Shown one piece after another: positions 22,434-56,150 of a stretch of 64,000 nt of DNA. Below the pieces are notes generated by a model. It was not told the origin of the DNA, did no database searches, and saw only the letters and a list, made by a program, of their open reading frames with translations. Each line of letters begins with the position of its first letter. Position 1 is the stretch's first letter. The translations under genes were made by a program, and so were the position numbers. Origin of the DNA: Nannocystis bainbridge (GTDB taxonomy: Bacteria > Myxococcota_A > Polyangia > Nannocystales > Nannocystaceae); the NCBI RefSeq assembly GCF_028368995.1, contig NZ_JAQNDL010000001.1, forward strand, positions 3,456,001 to 3,520,000. The letters run 5' to 3'.

Positions 22434-22711
22434 GAGTCATCGAGGCGGTCTGAAAAGATGAAAGCGTCACGCCCCTCGCGGTGCTCCTCCGGTGCCGTCG
22501 GGCGATCGGCGGTGAGGCTCGGCGCGTGGTTCGAGGCGATCCGCGTCGCTCTGCGCCGATGCGACGATCCTCGTGCGCTCGCGGAGCCGTCGGCCCTTTG
22601 CAGCGCTCGCGTCACGCTGCGGGACGCGATCTCCACCGGCGCAAACTCGCGGACCGGCGCCGCGGGGCGGCCTGGCGTCGCGCGCACGTCTTTGCTAGGC
22701 CTGTCGGCCTG

Positions 22712-25098: not shown

Positions 25099-26064
25099 TC
25101 AGCTCGGCCGCTGGGCCAGCAGCACTTCGGACAGCGGCCGGCGCGGCGTCGGCGGCGTGTCGGCGCCGCCGCCGAGGCGGACCAGCGCTTGCGCGCGGCC
25201 GGTCGCTCCGACCAGGCTCGCCAGCTGCTTGCGGCCGGCGGCGTCGGCCAGCGGCAGGTGCAGGAAGCTGCCCCAGGCGTGGTCGACCCGGGCGCGCAGC
25301 AGCACGCGCATCAGCGCCTGGCCGGCGCGCAGCCACTCGGCCGGCTCGTCGCCCTCGGTGGTCACGAGCACGAACGCCGGCGACCCGTCGGCGATCGCCT
25401 GCCCGCGGGCCTCGCCGCCGTCGGGGCCCTCGAAGCTGACCCCGGGCTCCCCGGCCGCGGCGCGAGCGGCCGTCCGGGCGCTCGGCTCGCCGGCGATGGC
25501 CGCCTCGACGGCCGCCGCGATGGCTTGCCTTCGGGCCATGTCCTCCACCACATGGTACTCGGCACCTGTCCCATCGACCATGTGCTTGAGCCGCCGCGCC
25601 AGCGCCCGCGACAGCGGCCCCTGGGCCATCACCCCGCGGTAGGTGCGGCGCTTGGGCGCGGCCTGATACAGCCACTGCTCCTCGGGCAGCGGGCTCGCGC
25701 GGCCGCCCACCGCCACGCGCGCCAGCAGGTCGGGGTGGCCGCCGGGCAGCAGCGCCGTCTGCTCGTCGAGGCCGAGCGCGCGCAGGGTCACCCGCAGGCC
25801 CGCCAGCGCCGCGCCGCAGGCCAGCGCCGCCGCTTGACCCTCGGGGTCGGCCTCGCCCCCGGCGCGCGCCGGATCGGCGTACAGCTCGATCACCTCGCCG
25901 CCGACGAACCACCGCCACGGCTGGGCGTTGCCGGGCGACGGGGCCGTCAGCGCGGTGTGCAGCGCCAGCTCGATGCGCGCGCGCGGGCCCGCTTCGGGCG
26001 CCAGGGCCGAGCCGGCCAGCGTCCACGGGTCGGCGTCGCGCGCCAGGTCCGGCGCCTGGATCAC
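25099..26064 (-). CDS. Acg-like nitroreductase-family FMN-binding protein
   Basis: APSPGNAQPW, ACGAAL, RRTYR, WLRAGQALMRVLL, LVRLG...TPRRP; GTG start overlaps the upstream TGA (GTGA). Confidence 0.85.
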   Translation of the reverse strand: MIQAPDLARDADPWTLAGSALAPEAGPRARIELALHTALTAPSPGNAQPWRWFVGGEVIELYADPARAGGEADPEGQAAALACGAALAGLRVTLRALGLDEQTALLPGGHPDLLARVAVGGRASPLPEEQWLYQAAPKRRTYRGVMAQGPLSRALARRLKHMVDGTGAEYHVVEDMARRQAIAAAVEAAIAGEPSARTAARAAAGEPGVSFEGPDGGEARGQAIADGSPAFVLVTTEGDEPAEWLRAGQALMRVLLRARVDHAWGSFLHLPLADAAGRKQLASLVGATGRAQALVRLGGGADTPPTPRRPLSEVLLAQRPS

Positions 26065-27794
26065 CCGCCCTCCGCTTCGGTGCGCAGCCGGGCGATCTCG
26101 GCGGTGAAGATCCGGCGCACGATCGCCGCGGCGCACGCTGAAGTGGCCTCGACCCCGAAGTACGACAAGCTCTTCGAAAGCAAGCTCTGGCGCCGCGAGT
26201 ACGGCGTATCCGACGCGTAGTGCAGCACCCCGACGTCGAAGCCCACCGAGTTGGTGAGGTGCACGATCTCGTCGTTCGGATGGCGCTGCGGGTTGCACAG
26301 CTCGTACACCGCCGACAGGTACGGCCCGGCCTCCATCTCGAGCACCGTGTAGCCCTCGCGGTAGAACACGCTCATGTACTCGCGGTTCTGCAAGAAGGCG
26401 CCGCGCACCGTGAGCGCCTTTTGATTGTCGAGCACCGTGCCGACGCGGATGTAGGGCTGGACGTCGGCGGCGACGAAGGCGTTGCGGAACAGGTAGGTGT
26501 TGCGCGAGTGCTCGTCCTGGACCACCGACGAGATCATCACGTCGCCGACGCGGCCGTTGAGGGTGGCCGCCTTGCCCATGACGTAGACCCCGCGGATCTC
26601 GTTGGAGCCCTGGCCGGCGCGCGACAGGTGGTGATAGGCCGCCATGCCGAGCGGGTAATCGATGTTGATGATCACCGCGTCGCTGCGGGCCAGCAGGTGG
26701 AGGTCGTCGACGCGCAGGCGCGGGTCGAGGCGCTCGGGGCGGATCTGCGCGAGGTCGAAGATCTGGGCGTTGACGTCGATCTTGCCGGGCACGTCGATCG
26801 AGGTGATGCCGCCGTCGGCCTCGAACTGCTGGACCTCGGCCAGCCGCGCCGAGTCCTCGTGGAGGAACGCGCGCAGCAGGTAGTAGCTGAGGTTGTTGAC
26901 CTCGGCCTCGTCGCCGCTGTCGAGCGCGCGGGCGAAGTGCCGCGCCAGGTCCTCCGGGTTGCGGCGGCGGGCGAAGTCGAGGATCGCCTCGCGGTGCTGG
27001 CGGGCGTAGCCGCCGACCAGGTTGAGCAGCGAGTGCGTGTTGGACGAGACGAAGTAGATCGGCGGGCGCCGCGGCTTGCGCTCGCGGACCAGGCTCGGCT
27101 CGATGCCCGACCACCAGCGCTGGACCGAGCGCTGGTACTGCGAATACGAGCCCGTCAGCACCCGCATCGAAAGGTCGCACGGCACCTGGGCGATCGCCTG
27201 CAGCGCGGCGAACCAGCCGGTGTCGAGCGCGGCGATCAGCGTGCGCACGCCGTCGGCGTCGAGGCCGAGCAGGCGCGCGAGCTCGGCGTGGTCGACCTCG
27301 GCCGCCGTGAGCGCATCGTCCTCGCGCAGGCGCCGGCCCAGCTCCGCGTTGGCGAGCAGGCTGTGCATCTGGTTCCACACGATCTGGTAGGTCGTGACGA
27401 TCGGGACCAGGTCGTCGATGTCGCTGGTGCTCGAGATGAACGCGCACAGCGTCTTGTTGCCGTCGAAGCGCAGCGGCCGGCGGCGCCCGCGGGTCTGGAC
27501 CCGCTGCCACGCGCTGACTTCGAAGCCGTTGGCCTCGAAGGTCTCGTGCGACTGGCCGAGCACGAGCTTCTGCACCTGCGGCATGCAGGCCGGCAGGCGC
27601 GCCGCGCTGTAGGCGAACGCGGCGACGTCGGGCACGCCCGTGCGCGCGCCCGGGTGCAGGCTCGAGTCGCTGAACGCGTGCGCCTCTTCGAACGCGCGCA
27701 CCCACACCTCGCCGGAGCTGCGCAGCAGCGAGTAGTAAGTGCGGATGTAGAGGTCGATCTCGTCGCTGGTGGTGCGGGGCCGCTGGCGGTCCAT
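26061..27794 (-). CDS. Conserved hypothetical protein (DUF6909-like; C-terminal nucleoside-phosphorylase-like fold)
   Basis: EIDLYIRTYYSLLRSSG N-terminus; NIDYPLG, GKAATLNG, EMEAGPYL, YASDTP. Confidence 0.7.
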   Translation of the reverse strand: MDRQRPRTTSDEIDLYIRTYYSLLRSSGEVWVRAFEEAHAFSDSSLHPGARTGVPDVAAFAYSAARLPACMPQVQKLVLGQSHETFEANGFEVSAWQRVQTRGRRRPLRFDGNKTLCAFISSTSDIDDLVPIVTTYQIVWNQMHSLLANAELGRRLREDDALTAAEVDHAELARLLGLDADGVRTLIAALDTGWFAALQAIAQVPCDLSMRVLTGSYSQYQRSVQRWWSGIEPSLVRERKPRRPPIYFVSSNTHSLLNLVGGYARQHREAILDFARRRNPEDLARHFARALDSGDEAEVNNLSYYLLRAFLHEDSARLAEVQQFEADGGITSIDVPGKIDVNAQIFDLAQIRPERLDPRLRVDDLHLLARSDAVIINIDYPLGMAAYHHLSRAGQGSNEIRGVYVMGKAATLNGRVGDVMISSVVQDEHSRNTYLFRNAFVAADVQPYIRVGTVLDNQKALTVRGAFLQNREYMSVFYREGYTVLEMEAGPYLSAVYELCNPQRHPNDEIVHLTNSVGFDVGVLHYASDTPYSRRQSLLSKSLSYFGVEATSACAAAIVRRIFTAEIARLRTEAEGG

Positions 27795-27807
27795 GGCTCG
27801 AACGTCC

Positions 27808-29010
27808 TTATCCGTGGCCGAGCGCGACGTCGACGGCGTCGAGCACGAACGGTACCTCGTCGGTGTGGTTGGGCCAGTGCGGGGCGAACCGCAGCAGGCC
27901 GTCGGGGGTGGAGCAGGCGACGCCGCGGTCGGCGAGCTCGCGCTGGAGCCCGAGCACGTCGCCGGGGTTGGGCGGCAGCACGCTGAGGATGCACGAGCGG
28001 GCCGCCGGGTCGCGCGAGCGCAGGCTGACGAACCCGCGGGCGATGAGGCCCGCCTCGAGCAGGTCGAGGTAGGCCTGCACGTGGGTCCACACCGCCTCCG
28101 GCCCGAGCTGGGCCAGCAGGCCGATCGCGGCCTCGAGCGCGGCGCAGCCGACGGTGTTGCCGGCGCCGCCCTCGATGAAGTCGGCGGTGCGGCGGATCGG
28201 TCGGTCGTAACGCAGGTGACCTGCCCCTTCCATCAGGAACCGAAGGCCATCCTCGTGGCTCAACCAGCCGGCGACGCGCGGCCGCAGTTCGCCCAGCCGC
28301 TCGGGGCGGACGTAGAGGAAGCCGAGGCCCTCGCAGCCCATCAGCCACTTGTGGCCGCCGACGCTGAGGTAGTCGATGCGGGCCTCGCGGACGTCGAGCG
28401 GGACGGCCCCGACGGCCTGGATGCCGTCGACGAACAGCTCGGCGCCGGCGGCGTGGCACAGGTCGGCCATGGCCGCGAGCGGCATGCGCAGGCCGCTCTG
28501 GAACTGCACCGCCGACACGGCGACCAGGCGGACCCCGCCGGCCGCGAGGGCCGCCTGCAGGGCCGCCAGGCCCTCGGCCGGCGAGCGCACGAAGTCGGCC
28601 AGCGGCAGCATCTCGACCGACAGGCCGAACAGCTCGGACGCCTGCTGCCACGGGGTGACGTTGGCCGGGAACTCGCCCTGGAACAGCAGCACCCGCTCAC
28701 CTGGCTTCCAGGACATGCACAAAGCGACATCCGTGACGCCGCGGGTGGTGTTGGTGATGAGGGCGATGTCGGTCGTCTCGGCGCCGATGAACCCGGCGAT
28801 CGCGGCGCGCAGGCGGGCCCGCTGCTGAATCCACGTGGGGATCACGCCGGCGCCGCGGCGGGCGTAGTCGTTGGCGACCGCGGCCGTCGCGGCCTGGACC
28901 GGCGCCGACCAGGGCGACACCGCGGCATGGTTGAGGTACGCCCGCGGCTGGAGGTCGGGGAACAGGCTGCGGTCGCCGAGGCGCGCAATGGGCAGAGTCG
29001 GAGTCGTCAA
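27808..29010 (-). CDS. Aminotransferase class V PLP enzyme (cysteine desulfurase/kynureninase-like)
   Basis: YLNHAAVSP, NTT, EFPANV, VDGIQAVG, GGHKWLMG (PLP Lys), LRFAPHWPN; start approximate. Confidence 0.9.
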   Translation of the reverse strand: MTTPTLPIARLGDRSLFPDLQPRAYLNHAAVSPWSAPVQAATAAVANDYARRGAGVIPTWIQQRARLRAAIAGFIGAETTDIALITNTTRGVTDVALCMSWKPGERVLLFQGEFPANVTPWQQASELFGLSVEMLPLADFVRSPAEGLAALQAALAAGGVRLVAVSAVQFQSGLRMPLAAMADLCHAAGAELFVDGIQAVGAVPLDVREARIDYLSVGGHKWLMGCEGLGFLYVRPERLGELRPRVAGWLSHEDGLRFLMEGAGHLRYDRPIRRTADFIEGGAGNTVGCAALEAAIGLLAQLGPEAVWTHVQAYLDLLEAGLIARGFVSLRSRDPAARSCILSVLPPNPGDVLGLQRELADRGVACSTPDGLLRFAPHWPNHTDEVPFVLDAVDVALGHG

Positions 29011-29229
29011 GGGCCGGCTGACGGTAGCAGACGCCCGCAGCCGTGGCGACCCCGGGAAAACGCCCGGGCGCGGAGGCCAGGGGCCGCGAGCGACAGGTCG
29101 CCGGCTCGCCGCTGCCGGCACGGGCGGTCACGAGCGGCCAGGCGTCTCGGACCTGCCCGGAGAGACAGATCGGCGGCTCGCCGCGCCCGGGGCCGTCGCC
29201 CCCGGGCCTGCCGCCCCTCGCGTGCGCGC

Positions 29230-30048
29230 TCAATCGTCGTCGTCGTCGTCGTGATGGTGCCCGTGCTTATGCTTGTGGTGCTTGTGCTTGTGGTGCTTGG
29301 GCTTGTGGTGCTTGCAGTGGCCGGGCGGCCAGCAGCCGCCGTGGTGGACGTCGATGACGACCGTCGGCGCCTCCCACACGACCACGCCGACGTAGACCGG
29401 GCGCGGCGCGTACAGCCAGCCGTAGAAGCCGCCGCCGCCGGTGACGACGACGACGTCGTTCTTGACCACGATCGGCGCGGTGTAGTCGTACACGATCGTC
29501 TGGTAGCCGATCACCACCGGCGCGTAGGTGGCCTTGACGATCAGCACGTTGGTGGTCTTGTCGGCCGTGAAGTTGACGTAGCCGACGATGACGAAGTTGT
29601 CCTTGTCCTTCTTGGACGAGGGCAGCGCGTGCAGCTCGAACACGATCGTGTCGCCCTGCTTGACCTCGACGATCTGGATCTTGTCGAGCTTGCCGTCGCC
29701 GTCGATGTCGATGCTGTGCAGCTTCTCTTTCGGGCTGTTGAGCTTCTTCTCGAGCGCGTCGGCGTCCTTGACCTTGCCCTTCTTGATCAAGTACGTGACC
29801 GTCTCGAGATCGAGCGCCTCGGGCTTGAGCGTGGCCGCGACGTCGGCCTGGGCCACGACCTTGGCGTCACCGTCGCCGGCCGGCGCGGCCTGGACGGCGA
29901 CCACCGCCTCGCCGCCGGCCGGGGTTGCGACCGCGACGGCGGCCTCGGCCTCGGCCTCGGCCTCGGCCGCTCGCTGGTTGGCGATGATGGCGGCGTCACA
30001 GCCGGCGAGCGCGACGAGGAGCGAGAGGGACAGGAGCGATTTGTGCAC
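29230..30048 (-). CDS. Lipoprotein with DxDxDG loop and His/Lys-rich then poly-Asp C-terminal tail
   Basis: LAGC lipobox, DIDGDGKLD, CWPPGHCKHHKPKHHKHKHHKHKHGHHHDDDDDD. Confidence 0.85.
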   Translation of the reverse strand: MHKSLLSLSLLVALAGCDAAIIANQRAAEAEAEAEAAVAVATPAGGEAVVAVQAAPAGDGDAKVVAQADVAATLKPEALDLETVTYLIKKGKVKDADALEKKLNSPKEKLHSIDIDGDGKLDKIQIVEVKQGDTIVFELHALPSSKKDKDNFVIVGYVNFTADKTTNVLIVKATYAPVVIGYQTIVYDYTAPIVVKNDVVVVTGGGGFYGWLYAPRPVYVGVVVWEAPTVVIDVHHGGCWPPGHCKHHKPKHHKHKHHKHKHGHHHDDDDDD

Positions 30049-30227
30049 GGTCGACCTCGGAGAGGGCTGCATTCGCGCCTTGGACCGACCCGCGGCGCGA
30101 AGTTCCAGGACTATCGGATCGAGGGGACTCCTGGGTCAACCCCGCGCGGAATCCCCGCCGGAACCGCGTGACCTCACGGTGCGACGAGGTCGGACAGACG
30201 GCGACAGACCCGGCCGCGCGGACGAGG

Positions 30228-30554
30228 TTACCTTTGAATCATGTCCTCGGAGACAGGTACTTTAGGACATGACCCAAAGCGCTCGTCGAATTCGGCCCGC
30301 AGGCGCGCGGCCGCAGCCGACGGATCGGGGCACGGGCCGACGCTGGTGCGGCACAGCCACGGCGCCGCGGGGTGCCTCTCGTTCAGCTCGGCGGCGAGGC
30401 CGGCGACGTCGGCGGCGCCCGCGTAGACGACCATCGCGCTCTTGCCTCGCGGGTAGCGGACGAGGCCCTCGCGCAGGCGGACCTGCAGCACACCCGCGGC
30501 GGGCGGCAGGCGAGCCGCGGCCTCGGACAGCGGGACCCAGGGGCCGAACTTCAT
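30228..30554 (-). CDS. Small hypothetical protein (weak GIY-YIG-like pattern)
   Basis: LPPAAGVLQVR...VVYAG...FDERFGSCP; GC3-rich codons. Confidence 0.6.
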   Translation of the reverse strand: MKFGPWVPLSEAAARLPPAAGVLQVRLREGLVRYPRGKSAMVVYAGAADVAGLAAELNERHPAAPWLCRTSVGPCPDPSAAAARLRAEFDERFGSCPKVPVSEDMIQR

Positions 30555-30672
30555 CGCGCCCCAGGATAGCGGAGTGCCGCACCTCGCGAAGCGCCGCAGA
30601 GTGACTGAACCGCGGGCGCTGGGGTCAGGCGGGGGCTTGCCGACAGTCGCGCCCCGGCCTTACGGTGGCGAC

Positions 30673-32292
30673 ATGTCCTGGCGCGCTCCTGGTCTGTTCT
30701 CGGTCTCGCTCCTCCTCGCGGCCTGCGGCGACGCTGGCGGCGCCACGCAGGGCGGCAGCGGCAGCGACGGCGACACCAGCGGCGACGCCGGCAGCACGAC
30801 CGCGGGCGCCGGCTCGGGCGGCGCGACCGAAGCCACGAGCACCGGCAGCAGCGGCACCGCACCCGCGCCGACCACCACTGGCGACACCAGCAGCGGCGAC
30901 CCCGGCACCACCGGCATGACCACCGGCGATCCCGGCTTCGGCCCCGGCCCGTGGGACCACGGCTTCTACATCCCCGAGGAGCCGCAGAAAGACGGCGACC
31001 CCGCGCTCGGCTACGAGGCCCTGCTCACCAGGGGCTACGTGTCCTGCGGCATCCCGTGGGGCCTCTGGCCGCTGGTCAAGCCGATCATCGGAACCTGGGC
31101 CGAGCGACCGCCGCTGCCCGGGCGCACCGGCAAGAACGCCGAGGTCCCCTACCACTGGAACGTCCACGCCAAGAACGGCGCCGACATCGTCAGCCAGAAC
31201 TGCCTGCAGTGCCACGCCGGCTCGTTCAACGGCCAGCTGATCGTCGGCCTCGGCACCGCCGACTTCGACTTCACCGACGACATCAGCCAGCTGCTGAAGA
31301 ACGTGTGGATCCCCGACATCCCGCTCCCCGGCCTCGAGGAGTTCACCCGCTTCCTCAACCGCACCAAGGCGCTCGGGCCCGCGACCCTCATGCACACCGT
31401 CGGCACCAACCCGGCCGAGATCATCGCCGTGACTCTGGTCGCGCACCGCGATCGCCACACCCTCGAGTGGTACGACGAGCTGCAGTACGAGCTGCCGAAC
31501 ATGGTCGTCGCCTCCGACCCGCCGCCGTGGTGGCGGGCCAAGAAGAAGCACGCGCTGTTCTACAACGGCATGGCGCGCGGCGATCACCGCGGCACGATGA
31601 TGCTGGCCTCGGCGCTGTGCACTGATTCGGTCGCCGAGGCCGAGCAGATCGACAGCTACTTCCACCACATCCAGGCCTTCATCCGCTCGGTGCAGGCGCC
31701 GAAGTACCCGCTGGCGATCGACGCCGCGCTGGCGAGCCAGGGCGAGGGCCTGTTCCTCGCCAACTGCGCCGGCTGCCACGGCACCTACGCCGCCGACGAC
31801 GCGCAGGACACCTACCCCAACCTGCTCTTCCCGCTCGACGTCGTCGGCACCGACCCGGTGGTCGCCGAGGCCGGCACCGAGTACGCGCCCTACCTGGTCG
31901 ATTGGTACAACGAGAGCTGGTTCGGCAAGATCACCCGCATGGAGCCCGGCCAGCCGTTCCCCGGCTACATGGCGCCGCCGCTCGACGGCGTGTGGGCGAC
32001 CGGCCCGTTCCTCCACAACGGCTCGGTGCCGACCATCGAGCTGGTCCTCGACAGCACCAAGCGGCCCAAGTACTGGAAGCGCGTCGACTACGACTCGAAG
32101 AACTTCGACGAGGAAGCGCTCGGCTGGCCGTTCGTCGCCACTCCCTACGGCCAGGTCGGCGCCCCCGACGACGAGCGCAAGTTCATCTACGACACGACGT
32201 TCGTCGCCCACGGCAACGCGGGCCACACCTTCGGCGACCACTTCACGCCGGACCAGCGCCGCGCGGTGCTCGAGTACCTCAAGACGCTGTGA
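30673..32292 (+). CDS. Di-heme c-type cytochrome lipoprotein (RoxA-related/CCP-like)
   Basis: LAAC lipobox, Thr/Gly/Ser linker, CLQCH and CAGCH, GYMAPPLDGVWATGPFLHNGSVPT, GHTFG...VLEYLKTL. Confidence 0.85.
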   Translation: MSWRAPGLFSVSLLLAACGDAGGATQGGSGSDGDTSGDAGSTTAGAGSGGATEATSTGSSGTAPAPTTTGDTSSGDPGTTGMTTGDPGFGPGPWDHGFYIPEEPQKDGDPALGYEALLTRGYVSCGIPWGLWPLVKPIIGTWAERPPLPGRTGKNAEVPYHWNVHAKNGADIVSQNCLQCHAGSFNGQLIVGLGTADFDFTDDISQLLKNVWIPDIPLPGLEEFTRFLNRTKALGPATLMHTVGTNPAEIIAVTLVAHRDRHTLEWYDELQYELPNMVVASDPPPWWRAKKKHALFYNGMARGDHRGTMMLASALCTDSVAEAEQIDSYFHHIQAFIRSVQAPKYPLAIDAALASQGEGLFLANCAGCHGTYAADDAQDTYPNLLFPLDVVGTDPVVAEAGTEYAPYLVDWYNESWFGKITRMEPGQPFPGYMAPPLDGVWATGPFLHNGSVPTIELVLDSTKRPKYWKRVDYDSKNFDEEALGWPFVATPYGQVGAPDDERKFIYDTTFVAHGNAGHTFGDHFTPDQRRAVLEYLKTL

Positions 32293-32295
32293 CGC

Positions 32296-33039
32296 TCACC
32301 CGAAGGCCGGCTCGCGGCCGTCGAGCGTGCCGGCCGCGCCGACCGCGGCGAAGCGGAAGAACAGGTCCTCGGCGAACCACCGCCGGGCCAGCGCCGCGCG
32401 GGCCGCCGCCTGGTGGTTCGAGCCGGCCCACGCGAATTGCTCGAGGCTGTCGGCGTCGTCCCACACGCTGAACGTGACCGGGCGGATCCACGGCAGCTCG
32501 CCGATCCCCAGCGCCGCGCGCAGGCCGGGCGCGCGCACCAGCCGGCTGTTGATCGCCGGCACCCGCGACCAGAAGTTGAAGAACCCGCGCAGGCGCAGGC
32601 GCGCCCGCGTGATCGCGACCATGGGTAGCCTTTGGGGCAGGTCCGAAAGGCCAGGTCCGAACGGACAGGTCCCGCCCCAGCTACCGCGGCCGCGCGCGGT
32701 CAGCAGCGCCAGCGTCCACGCCTCGCTGGCGCGCGCGCGGTAGTCGGCGAACAGCGCGCTGCGGGCGAAGAAGTCCGCGAGCACATGCTCCGAAGACCAG
32801 GTCGCGACCAGGGCGTAGCGCGACAGGTCGGGCTTCGCCGAGAAGCCGAGGCCGCCGCCGCTGCCGCACAGGCGCCAGAACTGCAGGCCCGGGGTGGCCG
32901 CCAGCGGGGCGCGGGCGCGGCCCATCTGCTTGAAGGCCCACAGCCGTCGGCCGGGCGGGAACCGCAGCACCGTGACCGTCGTGATCGTCGCGCCGGGCGG
33001 CGGGCGATGGACCCACCGGAGAGCGTGCTCGCCCGGCAA
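32296..33039 (-). CDS. Spheroidene monooxygenase (CrtA)-like protein
   Basis: FWRLCGSGGGLGFS, RGSWGG, AITRARLR, FW..VP, GIGELP, TFSVW, H...WFAEDLFFRF. Confidence 0.75.
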   Translation of the reverse strand: MPGEHALRWVHRPPPGATITTVTVLRFPPGRRLWAFKQMGRARAPLAATPGLQFWRLCGSGGGLGFSAKPDLSRYALVATWSSEHVLADFFARSALFADYRARASEAWTLALLTARGRGSWGGTCPFGPGLSDLPQRLPMVAITRARLRLRGFFNFWSRVPAINSRLVRAPGLRAALGIGELPWIRPVTFSVWDDADSLEQFAWAGSNHQAAARAALARRWFAEDLFFRFAAVGAAGTLDGREPAFG

Positions 33040-33043
33040 GCGC

Positions 33044-33799: not shown

Positions 33800-34042
33800 G
33801 CGGGAGCGGAGGCCCTCGACGCTTGCTTGTAGCACGCGGCCCGGGCCCGCGGGAGGCCACACCCGTCAGGACCCTCGCCCGCCCGCCCTGCCGCGCGCTC
33901 GCCCCGGGAGATCGCCGCCCGCGCGAGGTGCGACGCCCGGGCCGGGTCCGCGGCCGGTCCGACGGCGCCTGCCGTGCCCGCGACCTCCCGCTGGCTCGTG
34001 GCCGCAGGCGCGCGCGCCGACGCGCCCACCGGCGGGCCGCAA

Positions 34043-34275
34043 GGACATGTCCCTTCGGACATGTTAAAAAGACGCGGAGCGGGAATCACAGGCACGTTAG
34101 GACATGTCCGAACGTGCATGTTCGGAGCCGAGCGCCGGCGGCACCGTCTCCGCGAACGTGCGCGACCCATGGCGAAAGCGCCCAGCACCGTCGCCGCTCC
34201 TCGTGTTGCGCCTGTCACTCAGGACATGTCGAAAAGCACATTGTCACAAGCACATGTACTTTGGAACATGTCCAA
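34043..34275. repeat. Dense cluster of 14-bp-period decamer arrays (2+3+5 units)
   Basis: Cores at 34046/34060; 34089/34103/34117; 34211/34225/34239/34253/34267. Confidence 0.88.
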
Positions 34276-34287
34276 GAAGACCACGGC

Positions 34288-36837
34288 TCACCGCCGCGGG
34301 GCCGGCGGCGCGGCGGTGCGTGGGTCGTCGGGCCACGAGTGGCGCGGGTAGCGGCGCATCAGCGCCTTGCGGACCTCGGGGTAGTGGCGGTCCCAGAACC
34401 CGGAGAGGTCGGTCGTGACCTGCTCGGCGCGGCCGTTCGGGGCCAGCAGATGCAGCACCAGCGGCACCTTGCCGCCGGCGATGTGCGGCCCGCGGCTCAT
34501 GCCGAAGAAGTCTTGCAGGCGCGACGCCAGCCACGGCGGCTTGTCGGGCTCGTAGTGCACGGCCACGCGCCGGCCTCCGGGCAGCTGCACGTGCGTCGGC
34601 GCCAGCCGCTCGAGCCCGCCGCCCGCGGCCACGCGCCCGAGCAGCTGGCCCATCAGGTCGGCCGCGCGCAGCTCGGCGAAGCTGGTCCGGCCCTCGCAAA
34701 GCTCGGCCAGCACCGCGCGCGCGACCGCCTCGGTGATCACCGGCGCCCCCGGCACGTGCGCCGCCACGAACGCCGAGCGCGCCATCAGCCCGCGCAGCGC
34801 CTCCGCGTCGGCCACGAACCGCTCGGGCCCGGCCGCCTGCGCCTGCGCGCGCAGCAGCTCGCTGGCCGCGGGCGGCAGCTTCGCCCCCGTCGTGCGCTCG
34901 AGCAGCAGCCCCATGTACCGCAGCTCGCGCGCCCCCTCGACCCGCTCGCGCGCCGCGTTCCACTGCAGCTCGTCGCGCTCCTCGATCTCGTCGCACAGCT
35001 GGTCGATCAACCACTCCGGCTCGATCGCGCAGGCGCTGCGCACCAGCACCTGCGGCCCGCGGTCGGCCTCGCGCCGCTGCTCGACCTCCAGCGCCAGCAG
35101 CCACGGCGCCGTGCGCACCACCGACCCCGGCCCGAGCCGCGCCGCCCCGCCGCCCGCCAGCGCCAGCGCGCGGAAGCCCCCGACCTCGTCGCGCGCCTGC
35201 GCCACCCGCTCGGGGAAGGCCGCCAGCAGGGCCATGCGCAGCCTGTCCTCTCGTTCCTGTTCCTTGATACCTAGCTCTTTGGACCTGTCCCGAGAGTCAT
35301 GCGGAAGCGCGCGCAGTAGCTGGTCGCGGACCTGCAGCGCGCGGCGGGCCGGCCCGCCCAGCAGGCCGCGCTCGTCGCCGCGGCGGCGCAGCTTCTCGAG
35401 GTCGGCGAGGTCGACCAGCACGTCGGCGTCGGCGTCGCACGAGGCCAGCGCGCCTGACGGGCGGATCGATCGCTCGGACAGCAGCGCCGCCGCGCCGCAG
35501 GCCAGCCCCGGCACGCCGCGATCGATCCCCTCGCACAGCAGCCGCCCGAGCCGCGGGTGGAGCGGGAACGCCAGCATGCGCCGGCCCAGCGGCGTCACCT
35601 GGCCTGCAGGACCGGTCGCCCCCAGCCGCCGCAGCAGCGCCTCGCCGGCCTGCAGCGACGCCGCTGGCGGCGCCTCGAACCATGGGAACGCGGCTGGATC
35701 GGCGACCGCGAACGCGTGCAGGTCGAGCAGCGCGCTCGCCAGATCGACCCGGTGGATCTCCGGCGGCGTGTGCTCGGGCCGGCGGTCGTGGTCGACCTGG
35801 GCGTACAGCCGCAGGCACCGGCCAGGCCGCGTGCGCCCGGCTCGCCCGGCGCGCTGGGCCGCCGACGCGCGTGACACCTTGCCGAGCTGCAGCGTCGGGA
35901 TCCCCGTCCACGGGTCGTGCGCCGCCACCCGCGCCAGCCCGCCGTCGATCACCGCCGCGATCCCGTCGATCGTCACCGACGTCTCGGCGACGTTGGTGCT
36001 GAGGATCAGCTTCCTCTGGGGACATGGCCGAACGGCCAGGTCCTGCGCGGCCGGCGGCAGCTCGCCGTGCAGCGGCACCACCATCATCCCGTGGTGGGCG
36101 GCGAACCCGGCGCAGGCCTCGGCCGCGCGGGCGATCTCGCGGGCCCCGGGCAGGAACACCAGGACATCGCCGTCGAGCCCCTCGTCGACCAGCTTCGCCA
36201 GCGCCCGCAGCACCCCCGAGTGGAGCTCGTTCGGCTCGCCGAGGTGCTCGATCTCCACCGGGAACATCCGCCCGGCGCTGGTGATCCGGGCGCACGGCTC
36301 GGCTGCTCCTTCGGACAGGTAACTCGCGACCGCGGCGCCGTCGAGGGTCGCCGACATCACGACGAGCTTGAGGTCGGGCCGGTCCGAGCGCTGGAGCTGG
36401 CGCAGCAGCGCGAGCCCCACGTCGCCGTCGATGTGGCGCTCGTGGAACTCGTCGAGCACGACCGCGCCGACGTCGCGCAGCGCCGGGTCGGCGTGCAGCT
36501 TGCGCGCCAGCAGGCCCTCGGTGATGAAGCGCAGGCGCGTCGTCGGACCGACCGCCGACTCGAAGCGGACCTGGTAGCCGACGGTCGCGCCGAGCGGTTC
36601 GCCGAGGCTCTCGGCCACCCGCGCCGCGGTCATGCGCGCCGCCAGGCGGCGCGGCTGCAGCACCAGCACCTCGCGCTCGCCGGCCAGCCCGGCCTGCAGC
36701 AGCGCCAGCGGCACGCGCGTGGTCTTGCCGGCCCCGGGCGGCGCCTCGATCACCGCGCAGGGCGATCGCTGCAGGGCCGCGACGATGTCGGCGAGGACCT
36801 CGTCGATCGGCAGCTGCGAGGGTGCGCGCGGGGCCAC
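34288..36837 (-). CDS. hrpB: ATP-dependent RNA helicase HrpB
   Basis: LPIDEVL, APPGAGKTT, DEFHER, MSAT, TNVAETS, QRAGRAGR, C-terminal LQDFFG...RYPRHSWP. Confidence 0.96.
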   Translation of the reverse strand: MAPRAPSQLPIDEVLADIVAALQRSPCAVIEAPPGAGKTTRVPLALLQAGLAGEREVLVLQPRRLAARMTAARVAESLGEPLGATVGYQVRFESAVGPTTRLRFITEGLLARKLHADPALRDVGAVVLDEFHERHIDGDVGLALLRQLQRSDRPDLKLVVMSATLDGAAVASYLSEGAAEPCARITSAGRMFPVEIEHLGEPNELHSGVLRALAKLVDEGLDGDVLVFLPGAREIARAAEACAGFAAHHGMMVVPLHGELPPAAQDLAVRPCPQRKLILSTNVAETSVTIDGIAAVIDGGLARVAAHDPWTGIPTLQLGKVSRASAAQRAGRAGRTRPGRCLRLYAQVDHDRRPEHTPPEIHRVDLASALLDLHAFAVADPAAFPWFEAPPAASLQAGEALLRRLGATGPAGQVTPLGRRMLAFPLHPRLGRLLCEGIDRGVPGLACGAAALLSERSIRPSGALASCDADADVLVDLADLEKLRRRGDERGLLGGPARRALQVRDQLLRALPHDSRDRSKELGIKEQEREDRLRMALLAAFPERVAQARDEVGGFRALALAGGGAARLGPGSVVRTAPWLLALEVEQRREADRGPQVLVRSACAIEPEWLIDQLCDEIEERDELQWNAARERVEGARELRYMGLLLERTTGAKLPPAASELLRAQAQAAGPERFVADAEALRGLMARSAFVAAHVPGAPVITEAVARAVLAELCEGRTSFAELRAADLMGQLLGRVAAGGGLERLAPTHVQLPGGRRVAVHYEPDKPPWLASRLQDFFGMSRGPHIAGGKVPLVLHLLAPNGRAEQVTTDLSGFWDRHYPEVRKALMRRYPRHSWPDDPRTAAPPAPRR

Positions 36838-37043
36838 GACGGCGCAGCATAGCGGCCCGCTGCGGCTGCGCCCGCTCGCAGGTTTGCGCCTGGTCGCGTG
36901 AGTTTTCCGCGAGACGATGCCCATCGCGTGAGCTGTCCTCGGGGTCATCTCTCCCGCAGAACTGGCCCGAACGGCAGGCGACGGGTCGCGCTCGCACGCC
37001 GCGCTTGACCGGGTGCCGGGGCCGGCGCCAAGCTCCCTCGACG

Positions 37044-37274
37044 GTGGCCTTCAACCTGGCGCAGCTCGAGCTCGGTGCGCGTGCCCGCGTGACCCTCGTC
37101 GGGGGCAGCGGGGCGCTGGCGCTGCGTCTGCTCGAGATGGGCTTCACGCCGGGCACCGTGGTGCTGCTGGTCAAGCGGGCCCCGTTCGGCGACCCGCTCG
37201 AGCTGCAGGTCCGCGGCTGTCACGTGTCGCTGCGCAAGGCCGAGGCCGCGCGGATCGAGGCGGTGTTGTTATGA
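37044..37274 (+). CDS. feoA: Ferrous iron transport protein A
   Basis: RLLEMGFTPG...APFGDPLELQVRG..VSLRKAEA; overlaps the feoB start (ATGA). Confidence 0.93.
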   Translation: MAFNLAQLELGARARVTLVGGSGALALRLLEMGFTPGTVVLLVKRAPFGDPLELQVRGCHVSLRKAEAARIEAVLL

Positions 37275-39427
37275 CGCTGCGCGGCGCGACGCCCCTGCGC
37301 GTGGCCCTCGCGGGCAACCCGAACGTCGGCAAGACCAGCCTCTTCAACGAGCTGACCGGGTCGCGCCACAAGGTCGGCAACTACGCCGGCGTCACCGTCG
37401 AGACCCGCGCCGGCGCCGTCGTCGCTCGCCTCGCCCCCGCGCGGCCGATCACGATCGTCGACCTGCCCGGCACCTACAGCCTCACGCCGATCGCCGAGGA
37501 CGAGGCCGTCGCGTTCCGCTGCCTCACCGGCGCCGACGACCAGCCGCCCGACGTCGTCGCCCTCGTGCTCGACGCCGCCAACCTGGCCCGCAACCTCTAC
37601 CTCGCCGTCCAGCTGCTCGAGCTCGGGCGCCCGCTGGTCGTCGCCCTCAACATGATGGACGTCGCCGCCGAGGCCGGCGCACCGGTCGACCCCGCCGCCC
37701 TGGCCCGCGCCCTCGGCGTGCCGGTCTTGCCGACGGTCGCGCGCACCGGCGAGGGCATCGCGCGCCTGGTCGAAGGGCTAGGTTCCATCGAACATGTCCC
37801 TTCGGACACCTCGCCGCTGCGCGCCCGCCTTCTGACGGGCGACGACGCCGTGCCGCCGCCGCCCGGGACCGAACTGGCGCGCTGGCGCTGGCTGGTCTCG
37901 GCGGCCGCGGCCGGCACCCTCGACCTGGCCGCGCCGACCGCCGACGAGCGCGTCGCTCTGGCCGCGCTGGCGCCCGCGGCCGTGACCGCGGCCGCGCACG
38001 CGCGGGTGATCGCCCGCTACCGCGAGGTCGACGCCCTGCTGGCCGAGCTCGGCTTCACCGCCGCCCAGCGCGAGCGGGCCCCGGCGATGACCCGCTCGGC
38101 GGCGATCGACCGCGTGCTGACCCACCGCGTGTGGGGCCTGGCGATCTTCGTCCTCGTCATGGCGACGATCTTCAGCTCGATCTTCACCTGGGCCGAGCCG
38201 ATCATGGGCGCGATCGAGGCGCTCATCAGCTGGCTCTCGGGACAGGTCCGCGGACCGCTCGGGCCCGGCGTCTTCACCGACCTGCTGACCCAGGGCGTGA
38301 TCGCCGGCGCCGGCAACGTGCTGGTGTTCGTGCCGCAGATCGCCCTGCTGTTCCTGCTGCTCGGCCTGCTCGAGGACTCGGGCTACATGGCCCGCGCGGC
38401 GTTCCTGGTCGACCGGCTGATGGCCAGGGTCGGCCTGCACGGGCGCGCCTTCGTCCCGCTGCTGAGCGGCTACGCCTGCGCCATCCCGGCCATCCTCGGC
38501 ACCCGCACGATCACCGACCCGCGCGACCGCCTGGCCACGATCCTCATGATCCCGTTCATGAGCTGCAGCGCGCGCCTGCCGATCTACGTCCTCTTCATCA
38601 GCGCGCTGTTCCCCGCCGACGACCGCGTCGGCCCGTTCACCGTCGGCAGCCTCATGCTGGTCGGCTTCTACGCGCTGTCGACGGTGTCGGCCCTGCTCGT
38701 CGGCGCGTTCTGGAAGCGCACCGCCCTGCGCGGCCCGACCCCGCCGTTCGTGCTCGAGCTGCCGCCGTACCGGCTGCCGCGCCTGCGCAACACCCTGCTC
38801 CACGTCTACGACCGCACCGCCGACTTCGTCCGCCAGGCCGGCACCGTCATCCTCGCGGTCACCGTCGTGCTGTGGGTGCTGCTCAGCTTCCCGCGCCCGC
38901 CCGACGCGCCGCCGGTGCCGGTCGACGTCGACCCGGTCGCGCATGTCGAGCCGGACATGTCCGAAACGCCAGACTCGCCGACCCCGCCGCGCGACGAGGA
39001 CTCGCCGATCGTGCACTCGATCGGCGGCCGGATCGGCAAGGCGATCGAGCCGGCGCTGCTGCCGATGGGCCAGGACTTCCGCATGGGCATCGCCATCCTC
39101 GGCAGCTTCGCCGCCCGCGAGGTCATGGTCAGCACGCTCGGCCTGGTCTACGGCATCGAAGAGGACGACGACGACCAGACCTCGCTGCGCGAGAAGCTCC
39201 GCGAGGCCCGCGAGCCCGACGGCTCGCGCCGCCACACCCCCCTGAAGGGCCTGGCGGCGATGATCTTCTTCGTCTACGCCTGCCAGTGCATGTCGACGCT
39301 GGCGGTGGTGCGCCGCGAGACCGGCGCGTGGAAGTGGCCGCTGGTGATGTTCACCACCATGTCGGCCCTGGCCTACGCGCTGGCGGTGCTGGTCTACCAG
39401 GTCGGCCTCGCGCTCGGCTACACCTGA
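37271..39427 (+). CDS. feoB: Ferrous iron transport protein B
   Basis: GNPNVGKT, NYAGVTVE, DLPGTY, NMMD, LEDSGYMAR, MSCSARLP, FVLELPPY, AREV. Confidence 0.97.
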   Translation: MTLRGATPLRVALAGNPNVGKTSLFNELTGSRHKVGNYAGVTVETRAGAVVARLAPARPITIVDLPGTYSLTPIAEDEAVAFRCLTGADDQPPDVVALVLDAANLARNLYLAVQLLELGRPLVVALNMMDVAAEAGAPVDPAALARALGVPVLPTVARTGEGIARLVEGLGSIEHVPSDTSPLRARLLTGDDAVPPPPGTELARWRWLVSAAAAGTLDLAAPTADERVALAALAPAAVTAAAHARVIARYREVDALLAELGFTAAQRERAPAMTRSAAIDRVLTHRVWGLAIFVLVMATIFSSIFTWAEPIMGAIEALISWLSGQVRGPLGPGVFTDLLTQGVIAGAGNVLVFVPQIALLFLLLGLLEDSGYMARAAFLVDRLMARVGLHGRAFVPLLSGYACAIPAILGTRTITDPRDRLATILMIPFMSCSARLPIYVLFISALFPADDRVGPFTVGSLMLVGFYALSTVSALLVGAFWKRTALRGPTPPFVLELPPYRLPRLRNTLLHVYDRTADFVRQAGTVILAVTVVLWVLLSFPRPPDAPPVPVDVDPVAHVEPDMSETPDSPTPPRDEDSPIVHSIGGRIGKAIEPALLPMGQDFRMGIAILGSFAAREVMVSTLGLVYGIEEDDDDQTSLREKLREAREPDGSRRHTPLKGLAAMIFFVYACQCMSTLAVVRRETGAWKWPLVMFTTMSALAYALAVLVYQVGLALGYT

Positions 39428-39504
39428 CCTGGCCCTGTGAGCATGTCGGATCGGTCATGCCCGATCGGACCTATTCGAATGGACCTGTTCTTTCGAACAG
39501 GTCC
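39425..39504. repeat. 14-bp-period decamer array (6 units) between convergent feoB and mscL
   Basis: Cores at 39428, 39442, 39456, 39470, 39484, 39498. Confidence 0.85.
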
Positions 39505-39525
39505 GGGGCATCGTCGCGGCTCGCC

Positions 39526-39963
39526 TCAGAGCGGGCGGGCTCGCAGCAGGTCGCGGATCTCCGCCAGCAGCTTCTCCTGGGCCGTCGGCGGCGCCGGGAC
39601 CTCCTCCTCCTTGGCGATCATGCGCTCCTTCGCCCGCTGGATCGCCGACACCAGCAGGTAGACGGCGAACGCGACGATCAGGAACGTGACGATGAAGTTG
39701 AGGAACACACCGTAGCGGACCGTCACCGCGCCGGCCGCGGTCGCGGCGGCCAGCGTGTCGTAGGGGCCGACCGGCGCGCCGTCCTTGAGGACGACGAAGA
39801 GGTTGGAGAAGTCGACGCCGCCGAGAGCGAGGCCGATGGGCGGCATGATCACGTCGTCGACCAGCGACTTGACGATCGCGCCGAACGCCGCGCCGAGGAT
39901 AATGCCGGAAGCCATGTCGATCAGGCTTCCGCGCATGGCGAACTTCTTGAACCCGCTGAGCAT
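39526..39963 (-). CDS. mscL: Large-conductance mechanosensitive channel
   Basis: FKKFAMRG..IDMA.GIILGAAFGAIVKSLVDDVIMP, YGVFL, LLAEIRDLL. Confidence 0.96.
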   Translation of the reverse strand: MLSGFKKFAMRGSLIDMASGIILGAAFGAIVKSLVDDVIMPPIGLALGGVDFSNLFVVLKDGAPVGPYDTLAAATAAGAVTVRYGVFLNFIVTFLIVAFAVYLLVSAIQRAKERMIAKEEEVPAPPTAQEKLLAEIRDLLRARPL

Positions 39964-40064
39964 CGCGCGGGATTCTATTGCCCCGGACCGACGAACACGC
40001 CAGCGAACGACGGGGCGGCCGGTGGCGACCTGCGATTTGCCTCACGGTCGCGGCGGACGGCGGA

Positions 40065-40484
40065 CTACAGCTTGTCCGACGCGATGCCGACCGAGCCGAC
40101 GCCCGCCTCGTGGGCGGCCGCCATCAGGCGAATGACCTCGCCGTACTTGACCCCGGGCGCGGCGTCGATCGCCAGCTTGCCGTCGTTCTGAACCTTCGTG
40201 TTGGCCTGAAGCGCCGCGATCACGCCGACGGTGTCGCTGGCGATCACCTGCGTGCCGAGCTTGACGACCCCCGCGGTATCGATCGACAGCAGCAAGGTCG
40301 CGTTGGGGTCGGCCGGACCCTGCACCTTCGACTGGGTCGGGATGTCGAGCGGCATCTGCGTGTTGGTGGCCGGCGGCGCCGACACCATGAAGATGATCAG
40401 GAGGCACAGGAGCACGTCGACCAGCGGGGTCACGTTGATCTCGTTGAGGGCGTCGCCCTCGTCTCCGCCGACGCTGACTGCCAT
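40065..40484 (-). CDS. exbD: ExbD/TolR family biopolymer transport protein
   Basis: EINVTPLVDVLLCLLIIFMV; ATG at 40484. Confidence 0.9.
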   Translation of the reverse strand: MAVSVGGDEGDALNEINVTPLVDVLLCLLIIFMVSAPPATNTQMPLDIPTQSKVQGPADPNATLLLSIDTAGVVKLGTQVIASDTVGVIAALQANTKVQNDGKLAIDAAPGVKYGEVIRLMAAAHEAGVGSVGIASDKL

Positions 40485-40578
40485 GGTGCGGCTCACGCTA
40501 GCGGGCCGCGGCCGCCGCGTAAAGCCCGGCCCCGATCGTCGGCGCACGCGCCGGGGTTTCCGCGATATCTTGCCGGCC

Positions 40579-41763
40579 ATGCTCCGCGCCGCCCTCGTCC
40601 TCGCCGTCGCGCTCGCCGGGACCGCCTGCAACGCGCCTGCGCCGGCCCCTGCCGCCAAGCCCGAGGCCGCCCCGAGCGCCCAGCCGACCCCGCAGCCGGC
40701 TCCGCCCGCGCCCGCCCCGGCGCCCGTCAGGGCCCGCGACCCCCTGTGCGAGGCCGGCGCGGCCCCCCTGGCGGCCCTGCGCGCGCACACCGGCGCGGCG
40801 TCGATCGCCTACGCCGGCACGCCGCTGCAGCAGTGGGTGGCGGCCAGCGACGCCGCCACGGGCCGTCACGACGACGCCGCGATCGCCGCGGTGCTGGTCG
40901 ACACCACCCCCGCCGGCTTCGCCTTCGTGCGCGCGCGCGTCGAGGGCTCGATCGCCCAGTGGATGCGCGACCGCCTCAAGCACGCCGCCGACGACAAGGA
41001 CGGCCGCGACGCCGCGTGGGCGGCCGCTCGCTGCGCCTGGGACGTGGCCCTGAAGCCGCTCGCGGCCGAGGTCGCCGGCGCCGAGCCGGGCCTCGCCGAG
41101 GACATCGACGCCGCCTTCGCCGCGGGCGAGGCGGCGCTCGCCGGCGGTGATACGACCGCGATCGACAAGGCGCTGCTGCCGGGCCACGAGGTGATCGAGA
41201 AGACCTGGTTCCGCCTGGCGCACCACCGCTTGATGCAGGCGCTGGCCGACGCGAAGGAGCACGGCGACCCGGTCCCGCTGGCCCGCGCGCGGGCCGTGTT
41301 CGAGGACCTGCGCGACCGCCTGAAGGACCGCAACAGCCCCGGCATCGCCGTCGTCGAGCTGGCCCTCGCGGCCCCGCCGAACAAGGTCGACGCCGCCAAG
41401 GTCGAGCGGGAGATCGCCGTGGCGGTGGCCAAGCGGGCCCGCAAGTACTGCGACGAGGCCCTCACCCCGGCCGCCAAGGGCCCGCTCGGCAGCGCGGCGG
41501 CGATGGCCACCACCGCCGAGGGCACGGCCTATACGCGAATTGTCCTTTCGGACATGTCCGAAAGGCTCAAGGACCAGGGCTTCGACGCGGCGGCGCACCT
41601 TCAGGCCTGGCAGGGCTACGCCGAGGCGGTCGCGGAGGCCGACGCCGACGAGGCGAAGCGGCTGAGCGGCGAGCTCGTGCAGTGGAACTGCGCCTACCAG
41701 CGCGCCCTGGCGATCCGCGAGTGCACGTCGTCGGCCGACGAGGTGTCGACGACGACACCTTGA
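40579..41763 (+). CDS. Helical hypothetical lipoprotein
   Basis: GTAC lipobox, Pro/Ala linker, Ala-rich helical body, GC3-rich codons. Confidence 0.75.
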   Translation: MLRAALVLAVALAGTACNAPAPAPAAKPEAAPSAQPTPQPAPPAPAPAPVRARDPLCEAGAAPLAALRAHTGAASIAYAGTPLQQWVAASDAATGRHDDAAIAAVLVDTTPAGFAFVRARVEGSIAQWMRDRLKHAADDKDGRDAAWAAARCAWDVALKPLAAEVAGAEPGLAEDIDAAFAAGEAALAGGDTTAIDKALLPGHEVIEKTWFRLAHHRLMQALADAKEHGDPVPLARARAVFEDLRDRLKDRNSPGIAVVELALAAPPNKVDAAKVEREIAVAVAKRARKYCDEALTPAAKGPLGSAAAMATTAEGTAYTRIVLSDMSERLKDQGFDAAAHLQAWQGYAEAVAEADADEAKRLSGELVQWNCAYQRALAIRECTSSADEVSTTTP

Positions 41764-54736: not shown

Positions 54737-54740
54737 GCGA

Positions 54741-56068: not shown

Positions 56069-56150
<82 letters not shown>

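Follow-up and report, generated by a model that had tools for sequence, protein, structure and literature searches.

A DNA word in thousands of copies

The recurrence of a 14-bp palindrome both inside and between the genes of a Nannocystis chromosome raises the question of how a DNA word can be written through coding sequences (CDSs) and of what maintains it there. We studied this in a window of 64,000 nucleotides (C1:3456001-3520000; G+C 66-75%) and in the 11.05-Mb, five-contig genome to which it belongs (G000). A first-pass annotation of the window had proposed that the 14-bp arrays inside genes arose by substitution under selection on the DNA, rather than by insertion, and that this favoured a chromosome-structural or uptake role over promoter regulation. 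As far as comparison of orthologous sequences can tell, the in-gene copies are shown to come from synonymous and conservative point substitutions in segments that tolerate change (linkers, loops, poorly conserved residues).

The repeat unit reads TGTCC-N4-GGACA, or more fully (CA)TGTCC-YNNR-GGACA(TG), the first spacer position favouring Y, the last R, and the spacer being otherwise free. Exact copies number 1,987 in the genome, against 16, 5, and 13 occurrences of controls in which the half-sites are spaced by 3 bp, spaced by 5 bp, or set in reverse order. Units matching at least 9 of the 10 core letters (>=9/10) number 6,245. These near matches are themselves enriched: there are 330 9/10 variants against 28 in a shuffled 756-kb contig. 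At 8/10, the corresponding counts are 551 and 286, i.e., about half of such matches are expected by chance. In the window, CATGTCC is found 43 times (6.8 expected) and TGTCCNNNNGGACA, with at most one mismatch, 28 times (1.75 expected); neither count is reached in any of 100 shuffles.

Units are strung together in phase. Same-strand distances between copies of CATGTCC peak genome-wide at 14 bp (630), 28 bp (353), 42 bp (351), and 56 bp (157), and Tandem Repeats Finder (TRF) reports period-14 arrays in the window, e.g., at 32638-32672 and 34224-34257. Where units abut, the GGACA|TGTCC junction forms GGACATGTCC (n=956), so that CATG recurs each 14 bp, and these CATG letters carry the highest information content in the arrays. 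Seeding on units of at least 9/10, we counted 5,446 arrays of 1-9 units: 3,264 with one unit, 1,140 with two, 495 with three, 163 with four, 209 with five, 130 with six, and 45 with at least seven. The distribution has a second mode at five to six units, and spacings of 28 and 42 bp are equally common; this may point to a favoured composite of ~70-84 bp or to a super-period of 42 bp (four helical turns).

Units inside genes: substitution or insertion

All nine in-gene sites of the first-pass annotation lie in real genes with the frame unbroken, and family matches or conserved orthologs are found on both sides of them. The peptide LKHMVDGTGAEYHVVEDMA and the codon strings that it quoted read exactly as it wrote them, and its names for the Acg-like, CrtA-like, hrpB, and feoB genes hold (the Acg and CrtA-like matches being below family cut-offs). 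Mis-called ORFs were rejected as a source of in-gene units, since the arrays are spanned by family matches and by alignments with orthologs. For each site, we compared codon alignments with same-genus orthologs that are motif-less at that place and with sister genera; rows were dropped when they matched <60% of the query or were frame-split (L008 for hrpB; L209, L212, L213, L218, L219, L224, and L227 in later sets). No gaps occur in these alignments for seven out of nine sites (Acg-like, both in the aminotransferase gene, CrtA-like, hrpB 36023, feoB 37765, and ORF40579; near gap-free in the CrtA-like gene), and the hrpB linker has about the same length with and without the motif. We therefore regard these sites as written by substitution, as had been claimed; the claim does not extend to feoB 38942, which is an expansion.

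The clearest case of substitution is a conserved ORF at 40579-41763 (plus strand), where an exact unit (41541) and a GGACATGTCC junction occupy 41539-41566 without gaps. The peptide (I/V)(V/L)L(P/S)DM is kept, and ATC CTC CTC CCC GAC ATG ACG has become ATT GTC CTT TCG GAC ATG TCC. The ORF, taken earlier for a lipoprotein, stands as a gene, with matches in 12 out of 12 same-family genomes (E<=1e-10), and has no family match that would carry the name. The gene of an Acg-family FMN-binding oxidoreductase (25099-26064, minus strand, 321 aa; NF047509, E=1e-57, 196 bits vs a cut-off of 199; also a Nitroreductase match and orthologs) holds about four degenerate units at 25537-25593 (residues ~158-176), with CATG or CAGG each 14 bp and 8/10 matches at 25539 and 25567. 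It aligns without gaps to same-genus orthologs of ~50% identity and to one from a sister genus; in all of these, the codons at this place are the usual G/C-ending ones.

The class-V aminotransferase or cysteine desulfurase-like gene (27808-29010, minus strand, 400 aa; PF00266, E=2e-36) has two sites. At 28700-28728, one 8/10 unit (28702) with rare-codon flanks aligns gap-free, with GCT TTG TGC ATG TCC TGG .. CCA GGT where motif-less relatives have GCC CTC TGC CTG CCC TGG CGC CCC GGT/GGC. The patch at 28220-28248, gap-free within the genus, is the weakest of those listed: the rare codons are present (CTT, GAA, GCA, GGT), and the array claimed there is degenerate, with no unit reaching 8/10. The spheroidene-monooxygenase (CrtA)-like gene (32296-33039, minus strand; NF045923, E=3e-62, a single stretch from residue 19 to residue 241, short of the equivalog cut-off) is conserved in nine of the ten other same-genus genomes. 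It contains a three-unit array at 32638-32680 (8/10; 9/10 at 32654; a partial unit; TRF period 14, 2.5 copies) that shows no gaps against two out of three same-genus orthologs of ~60% identity, the third (G009) being one codon shorter.

The gene of the ATP-dependent helicase HrpB (34288-36837, minus strand; DEAD, Helicase_C, HA2_N, and HrpB_C matches) carries about four degenerate units (8/10 at 35286) in an inter-domain linker at 35242-35298 (residues ~514-532 of 849). The DNA of this array is nearly invariant across five close species, and two more distant same-genus orthologs have different units at the same spot, one of them with a linker 42 aa longer. By-eye counts give a linker of ~26 aa here and ~21-25 aa in seven out-genus orthologs. 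The longer linker, in G009 (L011), holds 3-4 units and an unrelated duplicated P/A-rich segment (PARAEPRP x2). A single 8/10 unit (36025) at 36023-36050 lies in a conserved helicase segment that is gap-free in 14 out of 14 aligned orthologs, and may in part be a chance match.

The gene of the ferrous iron transporter FeoB (37271-39427, plus strand, identified by family matches; feoA is at 37044-37274) includes both types of history. In the linker just after the G domain, the array at 37765-37808, with an exact unit at 37795-37808, has the length of the motif-less sister genus, and other Nannocystis bear units there in identical phase. At 38942-38971, a 9/10 unit (38944) and an 8/10 unit with a GGACATGTCC junction lie in a loop with many indels and repeated D-M-S-type triplets. 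Counted by eye, the loop has 40 aa here, as against ~14-15 aa in six orthologs from other genera and ~50-55 aa in four close relatives.

The same comparison was made at a larger scale with 1.2 Mb of sequence from G013, which represents the closest array-free genus, using 343 reciprocal best pairs (from 526 best hits) that reached 45% identity and 80% coverage. Among 33 exact in-CDS units, 26 touch no inserted residue, seven overlap one (vs 3.7% of random windows, P=1.7e-4), and one is wholly inserted; a gap lies within 10 aa of 14 out of 33 (11% in the control). Residue identity to G013 is 30% under exact units against a background of 62%. Insertions are overlapped by 10 out of 96 9/10 units, and inserted residues are found in four out of seven arrays of at least three units. 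Net change in length has a median of 0 both for single units (n=87) and for arrays of two (n=32). These alignments show substitution as the rule, with indels enriched ~6-fold, mainly at longer arrays, and a minority of copies sitting in loop expansions.

In-frame insertion of a small mobile palindromic element, of the kind of the Rickettsia palindromic elements, thus has only a very slight chance of being the general explanation. It has in its favour the excess of exact units overlapping an insertion and the feoB 38942 loop, ~25-40 aa longer than in other genera; it is contradicted for most sites by the gap-free alignments and the unchanged median length, and shared flanks, duplicated contexts, and target duplications are all absent. 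Clean insertions with target duplications had been named as the observation that would overturn substitution, and we found neither target duplications nor common flanks, the array flanks having zero information content. Only 30 out of 1,987 units have their 32-mer context in common with any other (98.5% unique), most of them in local larger repeats, and adjacent strong units share their spacer in 19 out of 485 cases (1.3% expected at random). A search for the Y1 transposase associated with repetitive extragenic palindromes (REP-associated tyrosine transposase [RAYT], PF01797) gave no match in G000 (90.5% complete), and the same search, as a control, was positive in 6 out of 14 genomes. A mobile element or REP was rejected on these grounds. 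Because the copies do not have spacers, contexts, or flanks in common, and the search for a RAYT was negative, the units look like independently evolved recognition sites rather than transposed or slipped copies.

Codon cost and frame of in-gene units

The use of A/T-ending codons in these patches, noted at first pass, is borne out by counts. The nine patches have 60-79% G/C-ending codons (15/19, 6/10, 7/10, 11/15, 12/19, 7/10, 9/15, 7/10, and 7/10) against fractions of 0.954-0.983 elsewhere in these genes. Over the whole genome, A/T-ending codons make up 29.0% of 13,452 codons under units of at least 9/10 and 5.7% of 3,012,415 codons overall, and the proposed check for a local dip in GC3 (G/C at third codon positions) reveals one extending ~7 codons on each side of the unit. 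Exact in-CDS units prefer the reading frame with the fewest rare codons: the three frames are used 425 : 265 : 62 times, the favoured one being xxT GTC CNN NNG GAC Axx. Their positions are spread evenly along gene length.

The 752 exact units that lie wholly in CDSs compare with 16-19 in five within-gene shuffles of synonymous codons, which keep both protein and codon usage. The enrichment in CDSs is ~43-fold relative to these shuffles; that of the word in the genome as a whole is >100-fold relative to the spacing controls. Selection at the peptide level was rejected: units occur in all three frames and encode unrelated peptides, and the synonymous shuffle alone removes ~98% of them. Such local clusters of rare codons and length-variable loops could mislead gene callers, codon-usage studies, and selection tests in these genomes.

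Conservation between species

Conservation was assessed in the syntenic 400 kb of a second species (G010), where 193 orthologous genes were kept of 239 with hits (425 queried) at thresholds of at least 70% identity and 85% coverage. Synonymous third positions are retained between G000 and G010 at 59,363 out of 67,425 background sites (88.0%), 57 out of 57 sites in exact cores, 121 out of 127 in 9/10 cores, and 44 out of 53 in spacers. The check on synonymous positions suggested by the first-pass annotation therefore comes out in favour of conservation, with 178 out of 184 core positions kept (pooled P=2.7e-5, in this one species pair, over 193 genes and 56 units) and no difference between spacers and background. 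Exact in-CDS units remain exact in G010 in 12 out of 16 cases and are at 9/10 in the other four.

Between genes, we compared 162 orthologous spacers, each lying between adjacent pairs of orthologs, the limits of the G010 spacers being approximate. A unit is present in G010 in 26 of the 41 spacers that have one in G000, and in 4 of the 121 that do not. At the level of aligned sequence, the ten core letters of a unit are kept once written, and its four spacer letters drift. The DNA word itself appears to be maintained, and such conservation would fit DNA-level and RNA-level constraint alike.

Units are anchored at gene 3' ends

To place the units relative to genes, we used our own codon-log-odds caller, which returned 7,855 genes (82% coding). 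It probably misses genes, so the counts in CDSs and intergenic regions are approximate. Exact units are found 752 times in CDSs, 14 times on edges, and 1,221 times in intergenic DNA, where they are ~7-fold denser; for units of at least 9/10, the numbers are 2,459, 149, and 3,637, and 38-39% of units are within genes. Intergenic density falls from 1.41 per kb in convergent spacers to 0.59 in tandem and 0.18 in divergent ones. Among spacers of at least 120 bp, a unit lies within 60 bp of 927 of 3,914 gene ends (23.7%) and of 131 of 4,806 gene starts (2.7%). In 1,136 tandem spacers of at least 300 bp, the number of units goes from 248 in the decile at the stop codon to 32 in the decile at the next start. 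This strong anchoring at gene 3' ends is a feature outside the claims of the first-pass annotation. The scarcity of units in divergent spacers and near gene starts agrees with its view that a promoter role is disfavoured.

Along the chromosome, exact units are evenly spread, averaging 9.0 per 50 kb and occurring in all five contigs, a distribution into which the suggested role of the matS/parS type fits poorly. Two 200-kb bins of low density, C1:1.8-2.0 Mb and C2:1.8-2.0 Mb, have 10 and 11 exact units where 25-55 are typical; recent acquisition of the DNA, or gene clusters that tolerate few sites, may account for them.

The window has several intergenic arrays. Those just 3' of the hrpB stop (34034-34061, 34105-34118, and 34213-34282) keep their place in five species and vary in unit number. 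A four-unit array (39444-39499) lies between the stops of the convergent genes feoB and mscL, with an RNA folding z-score of -3.0, a two-unit array (9/10, 8/10) is at 30242-30269, and a five-unit array (56940-57009) separates the stops of two convergent genes near one of the two tRNA genes of the window (56069-56150 and 63307-63389, both on the minus strand, found with Rfam). A 74-bp tandem repeat of ~3.9 copies at 54445-54767, directly 3' of the stop of a minus-strand gene (54741-56021), has one near-exact unit per copy (exact at 54557, 54631, and 54705) and is among the few places where copies share their context. Two other repeats found by TRF are unrelated to the 14-bp word: a 65-bp repeat x4.5 (22143-22434) and a 21-bp repeat x11.3 (23422-23660), the latter within a called ORF (22712-24187, plus strand).

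Distribution among relatives

The array 19-mer, present in 311 copies in G000, was found in all ten other genomes of the genus (1-223 each), once in G013, and never in G011 or in 18 other genomes; G013 and G011 represent two sister genera of Nannocystis. The named records whose HrpB is 93-95% identical belong to species of Nannocystis. The single-unit 16-mer CTGTCC-N4-GGACAG occurs 413 times in G000, 23-567 times in each of the ten other same-genus genomes, 39 times in G013, 8 times in G011, and 0-2 times in each of the 18 others. Controls gave 0 copies for the reversed 19-mer pattern and 0-3 for the reversed 16-mers. The word is nevertheless the top palindrome of its geometry in 1.2 Mb of G013 (22 vs 0.3 expected). 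There (C13:500001-1700000, L032-L091), it forms single units at ~1/10 of the density, of which 39 out of 56 are in CDSs, often with T at core position 5 and with A/T-rich spacers. This looks like an ancestral or early stage of the system.

Within the genus, one genome (G004, 64% complete) has, over 4.5 Mb, one copy of the array 19-mer and 23 of the single-unit 16-mer, and its feoB 37765 place is motif-less, unlike that of most Nannocystis. Given these low counts, unit density varies ~10-fold within the genus. Full-text literature searches, which covered main texts, turned up neither the word nor arrays of this kind, be it for Nannocystis or for any other bacterium, and the matches to the junction palindrome that we examined were p53 sites or primers only. 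The genome announcement of N. exedens, in its available part, mentions large repetitive regions and not this motif.

What may read the word

The reading that we favour, tentatively and at somewhat less than an even chance, is that a symmetric protein reads the word as duplex DNA and binds side by side on arrays. The reader would be a dimeric, lineage-specific protein. On abutting units, its dimers would sit next to each other each 14 bp, and three units would therefore span 42 bp, about four helical turns. Its main work would be at gene 3' ends, in a boundary, insulation, or nucleoid-organising function, and the in-gene copies would be additional docking sites wherever the protein sequence allows. 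The spacers are nearly symmetric relative to the direction of transcription, and covariation of stem pairs is weak or absent. A first test of covariation was confounded, because it mixed real units with G+C-rich background palindromes. In a second, cleaner test, double deviants were complementary from 5% less to 23% more often than expected in intergenic units (-5% to +23%), and less often than expected at four of the five pairs in CDSs.

Several observations weigh against a duplex-DNA reader. No candidate protein was found in a search that left phylogenetic profiling outside its scope; the genome has a single ParB_N gene, and an additional reader resembling ParB or KorB was rejected on this count. 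The anchoring at stop codons (927/3,914 vs 131/4,806; 248 to 32) is not predicted by DNA binding alone and follows directly from a role at RNA 3' ends. Three out of seven intergenic arrays tested fold well as RNA (z of -3.0, -4.5, and -5.4). Finally, sites are still accumulating at new places across sub-lineages, which also fits a biased drive with no function for each site. A fuller picture, that of a genome-wide punctuation system, is rather doubtful as a whole. In it, about one gene end in four, and thousands of spots inside genes where change is tolerated, would be marked by in-phase 14-bp palindromes, on which a symmetric protein peculiar to the lineage would polymerise and so set transcription boundaries or organise the nucleoid; the sparse and mostly in-gene single units of the sister genera would be its early stage.

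It is somewhat unlikely, on our weighing, that the units act instead as hairpins in RNA or single strands at transcript 3' ends, i.e., as REP-like stem-loops (5-10-bp stem, 4-nt loop) that would end transcripts or shield the mRNA, perhaps together with a protein specific for hairpins, the in-gene copies being spill-over or acting on mRNA. The order of densities (convergent, tandem, divergent), the excess at gene ends, its persistence in spacers of at least 300 bp, and the three folding arrays all point this way, as do paired double changes in some units (e.g., TGCTC..GAGCA at 48163) and a small complementary excess at intergenic pairs 4-11 (733 vs 595) and 5-10 (768 vs 681). However, the stem sequence is fixed, covariation being absent in CDSs and at three of the five intergenic pairs, and there is little asymmetry relative to transcription. 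Three in-CDS arrays show no significant structure (z from -0.55 to -1.8), in spite of the conservation of in-CDS cores. The arrays lack a T tract behind them, their flanks are uninformative, and none of the three terminator-like sites found (3.7 expected from shuffles) is at an array, which led us to reject classical intrinsic terminators (a G+C-rich hairpin with a T tract). A known RNA family was also rejected: the two tRNAs are the only gathering-level Rfam matches in the window, and the missing RAYT speaks against the hairpin as well.

A smaller probability goes to a drive like that of uptake sequences, whereby a DNA-uptake or recombination machinery would prefer the word and copies would accumulate by mutation and biased transfer where tolerated. 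By analogy, the coding copies, the codon-linked choice of frame (425 : 265 : 62), and the location at poorly conserved residues (30% vs 62%) match the pattern described for uptake sequences in the consulted part of PMC2817400. The even genome-wide spread, the lineage gradient of the 16-mer, and continuing gains in sub-lineages also agree with such a drive. Against it, the word is palindromic and in in-phase tandem arrays, unlike described uptake sequences, and its intergenic excess (~7-fold in density) is far stronger. Smaller again is the chance that the units have no function, as by-products of sequence-biased repair or mutation or by selfish spread tolerated at gene ends and linkers. Density does track tolerance (convergent > tandem > divergent > CDS), in-gene units lie at poorly conserved residues, and intergenic arrays gain and lose units quickly from one species to the next. 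Yet orthologous units and synonymous core letters are kept above background, and the units are not mutual copies of one another, no RAYT transposase having been found. The enrichment, not depletion, of 9/10 variants (330 vs 28) argues against a drive by very-short-patch repair.

Comparison with known systems

Proteins that read palindromes as dimers offer partial models. The sites of MatP (matS), ParB (parS), Noc, and SlmA are palindromes of 13-16 bp, read by a dimer, that can lie in genes; there are tens of them, in one region. The Nannocystis word differs from them in having ~9 exact units per 50 kb over five contigs, in a genome with one ordinary ParB_N protein. In the met-boxes of MetJ and the iterons of ParR or omega, ribbon-helix-helix dimers bind abutting units cooperatively, at few loci that are not in coding sequence. 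The Nannocystis units also abut without a gap, which may make these the nearest model for how an array works, but the word is genome-wide and in coding sequence too, and no such ribbon-helix-helix protein was identified.

REPs and bacterial interspersed mosaic elements (BIMEs), with their RAYTs, are described in the available part of PMC3733652 as small palindromes in many copies that are clustered and prefer gene 3' ends and convergent spacers. The Nannocystis units resemble them in being small, numerous, arrayed, and most frequent at gene 3' ends and in convergent spacers. They differ in that no Y1 transposase was found, 38-39% of units are in genes, neither loop nor flanks are common to the copies, and units follow each other head-to-tail at exactly 14 bp. 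Unlike the Rickettsia palindromic insertions, the in-gene sites are not discrete inserted segments, except at feoB 38942.

The closest analogues are DNA uptake sequences and the cyanobacterial palindrome HIP1. Uptake sequences are asymmetric, oriented words. For those of the Pasteurellaceae (uptake signal sequences [USS]) and Neisseria (DNA uptake sequences [DUS]), the part of Findlay & Redfield 2009 (PMC2817400) available to us describes coding copies in frames tied to codons and at poorly conserved residues. The Nannocystis word is similarly lineage-specific, in thousands of copies, with coding copies that arose by substitution, in frames set by codon preference and at poorly conserved residues. 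It differs from USS and DUS in being palindromic with a symmetric Y..R spacer, tandemly phased, and much more intergenic.

HIP1, in the available part of Xu, Lawrence & Durand 2018 (PMC5861425), is over-represented 15- to 300-fold, lies within and between ORFs, and shows a periodicity of 10-90 kb. From the conservation of its sites between genomes, the authors conclude that selection acts on the word as DNA, and no role in peptides, RNA, or gene regulation was found (PMC5861425). The Nannocystis word is likewise short and palindromic, exceeds expectation by one to two orders of magnitude, and lies in and between ORFs, with sites conserved in the one species pair compared. It is 14 bp long with a free 4-bp centre, whereas HIP1 has 8 bp; as a different word in a different phylum, it is an analogue and not a member. 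Its in-phase tandem arrays and its concentration just 3' of stop codons also set it apart. To our knowledge, the function of HIP1 is still unsolved.

To the small number of hyper-abundant DNA words known to be written through genes, Nannocystis adds a myxobacterial example. Its palindrome is long and has a free centre, so that core and spacer serve as internal test and control, and its in-phase arrays suggest cooperative binding. There is a natural gradient from sparse single units in the sister genera to thousands in Nannocystis, so that every gain can be followed at the level of single codons. Cultured Nannocystis strains exist, which opens this counterpart of HIP1 and the uptake sequences to direct experiment.

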